IMG/VR virus record: IMGVR_UViG_2681813205_000016
Coordinates: 1 to 4,395 of that record
DNA from: a virus
Taxonomy: Duplodnaviria > Heunggongvirae > Uroviricota > Caudoviricetes
DNA length: 4,395 nucleotides
Direction: 5' to 3' (one strand)
The position numbers and the translations under genes were made by a program. A model generated the notes under the pieces. That model was not told where the DNA came from, ran no database searches, and saw only the letters and a program-made list of their open reading frames with translations. This document shows positions 2,004 through 2,153 of this stretch, piece by piece (position 1 is the first letter of the stretch; every line of letters begins with the position of its first letter).

Positions 2004-2153
2004 TCACCCCACCAGTCCCGATAACGTCAGGACTCGCCAAGCGGTGGAAAAGAAAATGGCAACCAGAATGACTAAAAATGAAATGCCGACGATTACACAG
2101 AGGATCTTCGCCAGCGTTATGAGTTTATCCGATATCATTAGCCACCACTCCAT
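2004..2153 (-). CDS. Candidate small membrane protein (49 aa), translationally coupled between the Ant-like gene and Rz; unannotated
   Basis: [52 protein letters not shown] with one strongly hydrophobic TM-like segment. Its ATG overlaps the Ant-like stop (TGATG), its stop sits 7 nt before the Rz ATG, and an AAGGCGG SD-like motif is upstream. Below the ORF-track length cutoff. Confidence 0.4.

Follow-up and report, generated by a model that had tools for sequence, protein, structure and literature searches.

The stretch of viral DNA analysed here, 4,395 nucleotides long and referred to as the window, contains a short open reading frame (ORF) wedged between an antirepressor-like gene and the Rz spanin gene. 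The question it raises is whether this frame is a gene at all and, if it is, what its product does in the middle of a lysis cassette. Reading along the minus strand, the order is holin, endolysin R, the antirepressor-like gene (Ant), the small ORF and then Rz with Rz1 inside it, which is the distal part of a lambdoid late operon. The holin gene, an S21-type class II holin or pinholin at 4214–4395, is cut by the end of the window so that only its 3' part is present; its translation matches the S protein of phage BP-4795, and its RefSeq homologs are labelled 'class II holin family protein'. Endolysin R (2993–3526) is a lysozyme (Pfam PF00959, 1.5e-24) with an SAR-like segment of weak hydrophobicity, YGLSAAVLALIGAGASAP, at its N-terminus (hydropathy 1.67). 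SAR endolysins have been predicted for Stx phages (Pinto et al. 2021, PMC8136144). Ant (2153–2722) matches P22_AR_N and ORF11CD3 (Pfam, 1.9e-44 and 2.6e-06) and the Rz i-spanin gene (1529–1996) matches PF03245, Phage_lysis (Pfam, 1.5e-39). The ORF list and its translations give a further minus-strand frame at 1570–1776, within Rz and in the +1 frame, which we take to be the Rz1 o-spanin from the established Rz/Rz1 architecture. Its product has a lipobox, VVSAC, and a mature part rich in Pro, and the true start is probably the internal Met at ∼1761. Further downstream, beyond Rz, come a plus-strand DUF3950 gene and a gene for an HNH endonuclease. Many Stx1- and Stx2-converting phages, and also Shigella phage Ss-VASD, share this region at 95–98% identity, and no complete E. 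coli genome matched the whole window exactly, the best having 83% coverage at 98% identity. Because of these two observations the window is, judging by sequence, a mosaic prophage from E. coli that belongs to the Stx-phage type.

The small ORF runs on the minus strand from an ATG at 2153 to a TGA at 2006–2004 and encodes 49 amino acids. A sequence-only reading had picked it out, and its coordinates and translation were reproduced. The other particulars given there were also found: the first ATG and the stop codon of Ant share one base (TGATG), an SD-like AAGGCGG read from the sequence at 2158–2164 precedes the first ATG with a spacer of 4 nt, and codon usage is ordinary for the locus, the GC3 being 0.58–0.60 for the small ORF and 0.56 for R and Rz. 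The stop codon is 7 nt from the Rz ATG (1996). An ORF of this length is common by chance, the window having 28 ATG-ORFs of at least 44 amino acids compared with 11 in shuffled sequences, and thus the ORF alone proves little and its support has to come from comparative data.

Those data point to a shorter protein. The first five codons, encoding MEWWL (2139–2153), are unconserved in other alleles: codon 3 is TAG in allele U9 (four loci), codon 4 is TGA in one further locus (L008) and alleles of the 933W/BP-4795 type have a 3-nt deletion. Type-B genes, which are found in cassettes without Ant, begin at MSDK and are preceded by their own GGGAGGA SD. Given these stops, the deletion and the type-B start, the conserved product would be 43–44 amino acids long and the MEWWL extension is probably outside the functional protein. 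The conserved coding sequence in the window is at 2004–2138, 44 amino acids and a stop; it matches PHROG 4906, and the alignments start at M6. Reading the sequence upstream of this second ATG shows the SD-like GGAGTGGTGG at 2142–2151, with GGAG at 9 nt and GGTGG at 3 nt from the ATG at 2138. Translation is therefore placed, as a likely assignment, at the second ATG, M6 (2138–2136), while the longer form of 49 amino acids may also be made from the allele in this window. The earlier description of a hydrophobic protein of 49 amino acids stands as regards a small and very hydrophobic membrane protein and needs correction in its length and start.

Homologous loci were collected (171) and the region could be extracted from 165 of them. 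The 132-nt core exists as 17 alleles and is free of indels in 164 of the 165 loci. The sole exception, L004, has an 11-nt deletion and belongs to a prophage in which Rz and several other genes are frameshifted too. L184 and L185 share this 11-nt deletion and have in addition gained 2 nt at a point 15 nt upstream of it, so that the net change is -9 nt and the C-terminal frame is restored. For the most diverged pairs dN/dS in the frame of the small ORF was 0.25–0.33, with a synonymous excess significant at P=0.007–0.015. In the two shifted sense frames the ratio was ∼1 and it was higher in all three antisense frames. At the same loci the values were 0.35–0.65 for Rz and ∼0.1 for R and Ant. The 21 N-terminal residues are nearly invariant, even across cassette types, and changes in the C-terminal half are mostly hydrophobic-for-hydrophobic. 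The sequence-only reading had named conservation of the frame and codon-position bias as the checks to be made; both came out in favour of a gene, frame-disrupting indels being rare with one frameshift compensated elsewhere, and the synonymous bias being confined to the frame of the small ORF. Expression evidence also exists. The homolog in E. coli O157:H7 Sakai is the novel gene XECs191, which has RNA-seq and Ribo-seq signal and was classified as 'real' (Hücker et al. 2017, PMC5597208). The study lists one TM helix and an inner-membrane location as predictions for its product and notes that the gene carries an annotation in another EHEC strain. The signal is low and was obtained from uninduced cultures, and as Sakai has several prophage copies the Ribo-seq reads may multi-map and their assignment may be ambiguous. 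Taken together, the small ORF is almost certainly a real coding gene. Three loci (L088–L090, alleles U24–U26) are hybrids with a type-B 5' half and a type-A 3' half, so recombination breakpoints between cassette modules fall inside the 132-nt gene.

The existence of the gene is already known, as a hypothetical protein, as a PHROG family and as the Ribo-seq 'novel gene'. The window protein matches PHROG 4906, a family of unknown function, over its full length (E=1.7e-32, residues 1–49 on profile positions 1–49), and diverged homologs match it at 2e-19 to 4e-32. ORF50 of BP-4795 (CAD88851.1, hypothetical protein) is the same gene, and RefSeq holds members of the family as WP_000455406.1 (49 amino acids), WP_001280932.1 and WP_000622439.1, again as hypothetical proteins. 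The window allele differs by a few residues from the PHROG 4906, ORF50 and XECs191 entries and in nothing else of substance; all share family, position in the lysis cassettes of Stx phages and other lambdoid phages of E. coli, a length of 43–49 amino acids and one TM helix. The small ORF had earlier been called unannotated. This is correct for some records, including VT2-Sakai and Ss-VASD, in which it is skipped, and does not hold for BP-4795, for many Stx-phage records or for PGAP RefSeq genomes, where it appears as a hypothetical protein. Searches of Pfam, NCBIfam, PADLOC and PDB sequences with the small protein gave no match. A word-indexed search returned 61 clusters, all E. coli 'hypothetical protein', and an exhaustive profile search of 1.84 billion representatives returned 28, all of them close relatives or fragments and all belonging to phages of E. 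coli or Shigella. Two papers on Stx-phage lysis cassettes (PMC8136144 and PMC10462455) make no mention of the small ORF, and a literature phrase search for ORFs between endolysin and Rz gave nothing relevant.

The distribution is narrow. In the phage collection the gene occurs in 276 records, all from E. coli or Shigella phages, compared with about 362 in which the window endolysin R has a close homolog of at least 80% identity, and it thus sits in the lysis cassette of most Shiga-toxin phages. Among GTDB species representatives there was a single match, on the 328-bp contig NZ_JPLE01000251.1 (L010) of 'Xanthomonas pisi' DSM 18956; the small protein there is 96% identical to the E. coli phage gene and the contig is almost certainly E. 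coli or phage contamination of the assembly. An equivalent of the small gene was looked for in the K-12 prophages Qin and DLP12 and was absent from both. These prophages have S21-type holins and Rz, Qin also has the same 177-amino-acid lysozyme type, and in both R overlaps Rz directly. The gene is therefore an accessory one, and PHROG 4906 is, from the sequences found, a narrow accessory orphan family.

The protein is extremely hydrophobic, with a GRAVY of 1.87. Its best 19-residue window, residues 12–30, has a hydropathy of 3.27, far above that of the SAR segment of R. AlphaFold2 gave a single continuous helix covering residues 2–39 with a mean pLDDT of 90. The conserved lysines K5 and K11 precede the hydrophobic core, 0–1 basic residues follow it and the 14 C-terminal residues carry 0–1 charge. 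From these predictions the protein is very likely a single-pass inner-membrane protein. Hydropathy and charge suggest an N-in/C-out topology with ∼10 residues in the periplasm, because K5 and K11 fit the positive-inside rule; for the window allele this argument is weaker because of R35. Conservation was also examined for helical periodicity, as would be expected of an interaction face, and none of significance was found (706 of 5000 shuffles).

The surroundings of the gene were compared across the collected loci. It is co-oriented within the lysis cassette in all 171, and it is followed by Rz wherever the contig extends far enough, except in JJ1887-type loci and in L176. About 78 loci have the order seen in the window, S21-like holin, R, Ant, small gene, Rz. 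In about 81 the place of Ant is taken by a 60-amino-acid PHROG 1115 protein with a C-terminal TMD, and in L008 the order is M15 peptidase, Ant, small gene, Rz. In JJ1887-type loci R is followed by a 31-amino-acid hydrophobic ORF, the small gene, a partial PHROG 1115, a 28-amino-acid 'IRWW' ORF and Rz. The phiP27-like L176, whose copy of the small gene is diverged, has two other holins, a GH108 endolysin, ANT (PF03374), a 31-amino-acid ORF, the small gene, a lipoprotein of 60 amino acids and HNH, with no Rz or Rz1 called in the cassette. Since this last cassette has a quite different set of holin and endolysin and no Rz, no single lysis partner is constant. Holin, endolysin and upstream neighbour differ between loci; the gene is always found in a late-operon lysis context and usually next to Rz. 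The lipoprotein ORF of L176 (3125–3322, plus strand) stands in the usual place of Rz; it has the lipobox FLLVGC and three further Cys and belongs to PHROG 7528, of unknown function.

The interval between R and Rz is crowded with small hydrophobic ORFs in some loci. In E. coli JJ1887 (L171, ∼2599–3000, minus strand) and in L138 (2068–2646, plus strand) there are four. The JJ1887 chain consists of an unannotated ORF of 31 amino acids (MISQLPNWKFLLVWSIPFLWVVSQLIVAIKG), the PHROG 4906 homolog, a partial PHROG 1115 of 40 amino acids and the 28-amino-acid IRWW ORF, with a strong terminator-like hairpin after R. Phages that have an R of the same family and no PHROG 4906 often carry an unrelated mini-TMD ORF, PHROG 6632, ending in IRWW. 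It is 28–32 amino acids long with a single TMD and ends 1–2 nt before the Rz ATG, for example at 2599–2697 (minus strand) in TL-2011c (L173) and 1501–1596 (plus strand) in Salmonella SPN3UB (L182), and also in H-19B and Stx2c phages. Of the 46 phage records carrying it, nearly all leave it without annotation. PHROG 6632 resembles PHROG 4906 in occupying the same slot and in having one TM helix; it differs in having no detectable sequence similarity and in reaching Salmonella phages, and the two can co-occur (JJ1887, L176). A relationship of PHROG 4906 to the PHROG 1115 protein was considered and rejected, with an hhalign probability of 1.4%; the IRWW ORF of JJ1887 weakly resembles the PHROG 1115 TMD. 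One could propose that the interval upstream of the i-spanin gene in lambdoid cassettes with a pinholin and an SAR endolysin is a dedicated slot for unrelated single-helix mini-proteins (PHROG 4906, 6632 and 1115/4493), together an unrecognised fourth functional class of lysis proteins acting as intramembrane modulators of spanin, pinholin or SAR-endolysin. We regard this proposal as improbable as it stands; if it were true the mini-proteins could affect lysis timing, and hence toxin release, in Stx phages.

The position of the small ORF relative to Rz suggests a connection at the level of translation. The distance from its stop to the Rz ATG is 7 nt in type A and 14 nt in type B, and the Rz SD overlaps its last codons. 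As the small ORF ends within the ribosome-binding region of Rz, ribosomes finishing it would be delivered to Rz. An RNA hairpin is predicted at 1996–2055 on the minus strand (MFE -37 kcal/mol, z=-2.2), a possible translational-coupling element for Rz, in which codons 28–31 of the small ORF (UUUUCUUUUCCACC) pair with its last codons and the Rz SD (GGGGUGAAAGAGAG). None of 200 shuffles was as stable, and the BP-4795 allele gave z=-2.7. The hairpin was not significant in type-B or IRWW loci, and since it is supported in type-A alleles only, occlusion of Rz by it was not used as main evidence. On these grounds the chance that the small ORF is translationally linked to Rz is put at about even. The genomic association with Rz may be no more than a consequence of where the module boundaries of mosaic phages lie. 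Co-variation of the small-ORF allele with the N-terminal type of Rz was also seen and was judged uninformative because the genes are adjacent and recombination breakpoints lie inside the small ORF.

The explanation which accounts best for the observations overall, and which we hold with a confidence slightly above even, is that of a genuine gene for a one-helix inner-membrane peptide, started at M6, linked to Rz and serving as a non-essential lysis accessory. The gene would be expressed from a lambdoid E. coli prophage of the Stx type as part of its Q-dependent late transcript, with translation most likely from the second ATG and ending just ahead of the Rz start. The peptide would insert in the inner membrane, probably N-in/C-out, and we infer that it also acts within the membrane, as a non-essential accessory to lysis. 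Contacts with the TM segments of co-expressed lysis proteins would let it tune the timing or efficiency of lysis, the candidates being the Rz anchor, the SAR domain of R and the S21-type pinholin. The lysis-modulating function taken by itself is a tentative assignment and has somewhat less than an even chance of being right. In its favour are the co-oriented position of the gene in the lysis cassette and the unrelated mini-TMD ORF that takes the same slot in other phages. Against it, the protein has no homology to lysis families, K-12 Qin and DLP12 do without the gene, and in JJ1887 two other small ORFs lie between the small gene and Rz.

Known proteins provide partial parallels. Lambda S107, phage 21 S21-71, P1 LydB and T4 RI are small membrane-associated proteins which set lysis timing via interactions at the membrane. 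These antiholins and holin-like accessory proteins are co-expressed with a holin and an endolysin, and theirs is the kind of role envisaged for the small protein. The holin gene itself gives rise to S107 and S21-71 as N-terminally extended forms, and soluble domains are present in RI and LydB, whereas the small protein shows no sequence or domain relationship to any of them, is a bare helix of 44 amino acids and is encoded distal to the endolysin, adjoining the spanin genes. Holins and antiholins have a hydrophilic, charged C-terminal cytoplasmic tail and typically at least two TMDs or a dual-start motif. The small protein has one helix and no highly charged C-terminal tail, and its alternative upstream start is unconserved. 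Models of holin families in Pfam, NCBIfam and PHROG, for example PF04971, Phage_holin_2_1, for S21, did not match it. The Mu releasin gp25 (DUF2730) has 99 amino acids, an N-out/C-in topology and an acidic cytoplasmic domain of 73 amino acids (Chamblee et al. 2022, PMC9239132). It is likewise a single-TMD accessory encoded near the spanin genes in an SAR-endolysin cassette, and is a precedent for membrane helpers that are not holins. The small protein, in contrast, has no soluble domain, has the opposite predicted topology and coexists with a pinholin, and a Pfam search found no DUF2730 in it. An i-spanin has a TMD and a periplasmic coiled coil of ∼100 amino acids; in the small protein ∼10 residues follow the TMD, and the true Rz is the next gene. 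Outside phage lysis, E. coli has small membrane helices such as Hok, TisB, Ldr, MgtS and AcrZ, and such helices commonly bind larger membrane proteins or perturb the membrane. The small protein is like them in size and single-helix architecture, with no homology, and differs from type I toxins in that its gene is part of a phage late operon. Genes for such toxins have a promoter of their own and an antisense or overlapping antitoxin sRNA. No Rfam family, antitoxin RNAs included, matched in the window at E<=1, a weak negative, and a promoter scan found no sigma-70-like site on the coding strand between R and Rz, also a weak negative. PADLOC, used to look for anti-phage defence, matched 0 families. 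The roles raised in the sequence-only reading, those of an antiholin, a lysis regulator or a toxin, are thus not supported, as the protein fits no holin, antiholin, releasin, toxin or defence family in these searches.

Other explanations have to be weighed against this accessory role. That the frame is no gene, merely a chance opening in the spacer between Ant and Rz, might be argued from the frequency of ORFs of this size, from the low-complexity, hydrophobic nature of the protein and from the failure of several annotators to call it. Chance would have to produce purifying selection specific to one frame, a near-absence of indels, a compensated frameshift, a separate SD in the type-B loci, the Ribo-seq signal and the persistence of the gene in four cassette architectures, and we consider it very improbable. 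A second explanation accepts that the frame is translated and makes the peptide a tolerated by-product: translation of the small ORF would bring ribosomes to Rz and unmask its RBS, restoring the coupling of R to Rz that was lost when foreign DNA (Ant and other morons) was inserted. R and Rz do overlap directly in K-12 Qin and DLP12, and wherever they are separated a mini-ORF ends 1–14 nt before Rz, either PHROG 4906 or, in TL-2011c, JJ1887 and SPN3UB, the IRWW ORF. This explanation also agrees with the location of the Rz SD, which falls in the final codons of the small ORF and, in type-A alleles, is predicted to be paired. However, such a device needs no conservation of amino acids, and yet dN/dS is ∼0.3, replacements are hydrophobic-for-hydrophobic, the first 21 residues hardly vary between cassette types and a compensating indel brought back the protein frame. 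Furthermore, JJ1887 retains the gene at a distance from Rz and L176 retains it in a cassette with no Rz called, and the hairpin is not conserved in type B. This makes it unlikely that coupling is the whole explanation.

A reading with the same low but appreciable probability places the function of the peptide outside lysis altogether. The gene would then be a moron encoding a membrane peptide that serves the lysogen or competition between phages, by superinfection exclusion, by interference with host membrane proteins or as a membrane-damaging toxin, and the lysis cassette would be a mere insertion hotspot. The interval between R and Rz is indeed a hotspot of mosaicism, where Ant genes from two different Pfam families are found along with several small ORFs that are unrelated. 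The terminator-like hairpin after R in JJ1887, the Ribo-seq and RNA-seq signal in uninduced Sakai cultures and the character of the family as a narrow, young orphan all fit as well. Against this, the scan between R and Rz found no sigma-70-like promoter on the coding strand, the gene invariably lies within the late operon and in its orientation, the searches gave no defence or toxin family and no Rfam antitoxin RNA, and the low signal without induction fits spontaneous induction.

The system of holin, endolysin and spanin has long been treated as complete. Lysis in Stx phages controls the time at which toxin and virions are released, and a peptide that tuned lysis or the expression of the spanin would add a new accessory to these three components and would offer a simple genetic handle on toxin release. 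The recurrence of unrelated, mostly unannotated mini membrane ORFs in one slot is a modest lead.

Some minor features of the window were noted as well. A hydrophobic ORF of 52 amino acids (MSGEVQMDFMLTVSGVVILSIAYTADKYGCHLLSRIGAYCSLMLIFSSLFFE) lies downstream of Rz at 784–942 on the minus strand and an identical ORF is found in L138 (3448–3606); no match to it was found in Pfam, PHROG, NCBIfam or PADLOC. The interval separating the holin and R genes contains, at 3644–3958 on the plus strand, an ORF of 104 amino acids matching PHROG 1853 (unknown function, E=3.5e-47), with RefSeq homologs that are hypothetical proteins. It is antisense to the late operon and stands where other cassettes have YdfR/DUF1327 genes. 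The ORF of 80 amino acids at 1281–1523 on the minus strand matches the central part only of PHROG 2571 (positions 96–172 of 291) and is probably a truncated remnant of a larger gene. Lastly, two homopolymer runs, T13 and then C7, occur at 15–47, near the window edge, in the region of the 3' end of the HNH gene; in related phages (phiP27) the cos site is located just past the HNH gene.
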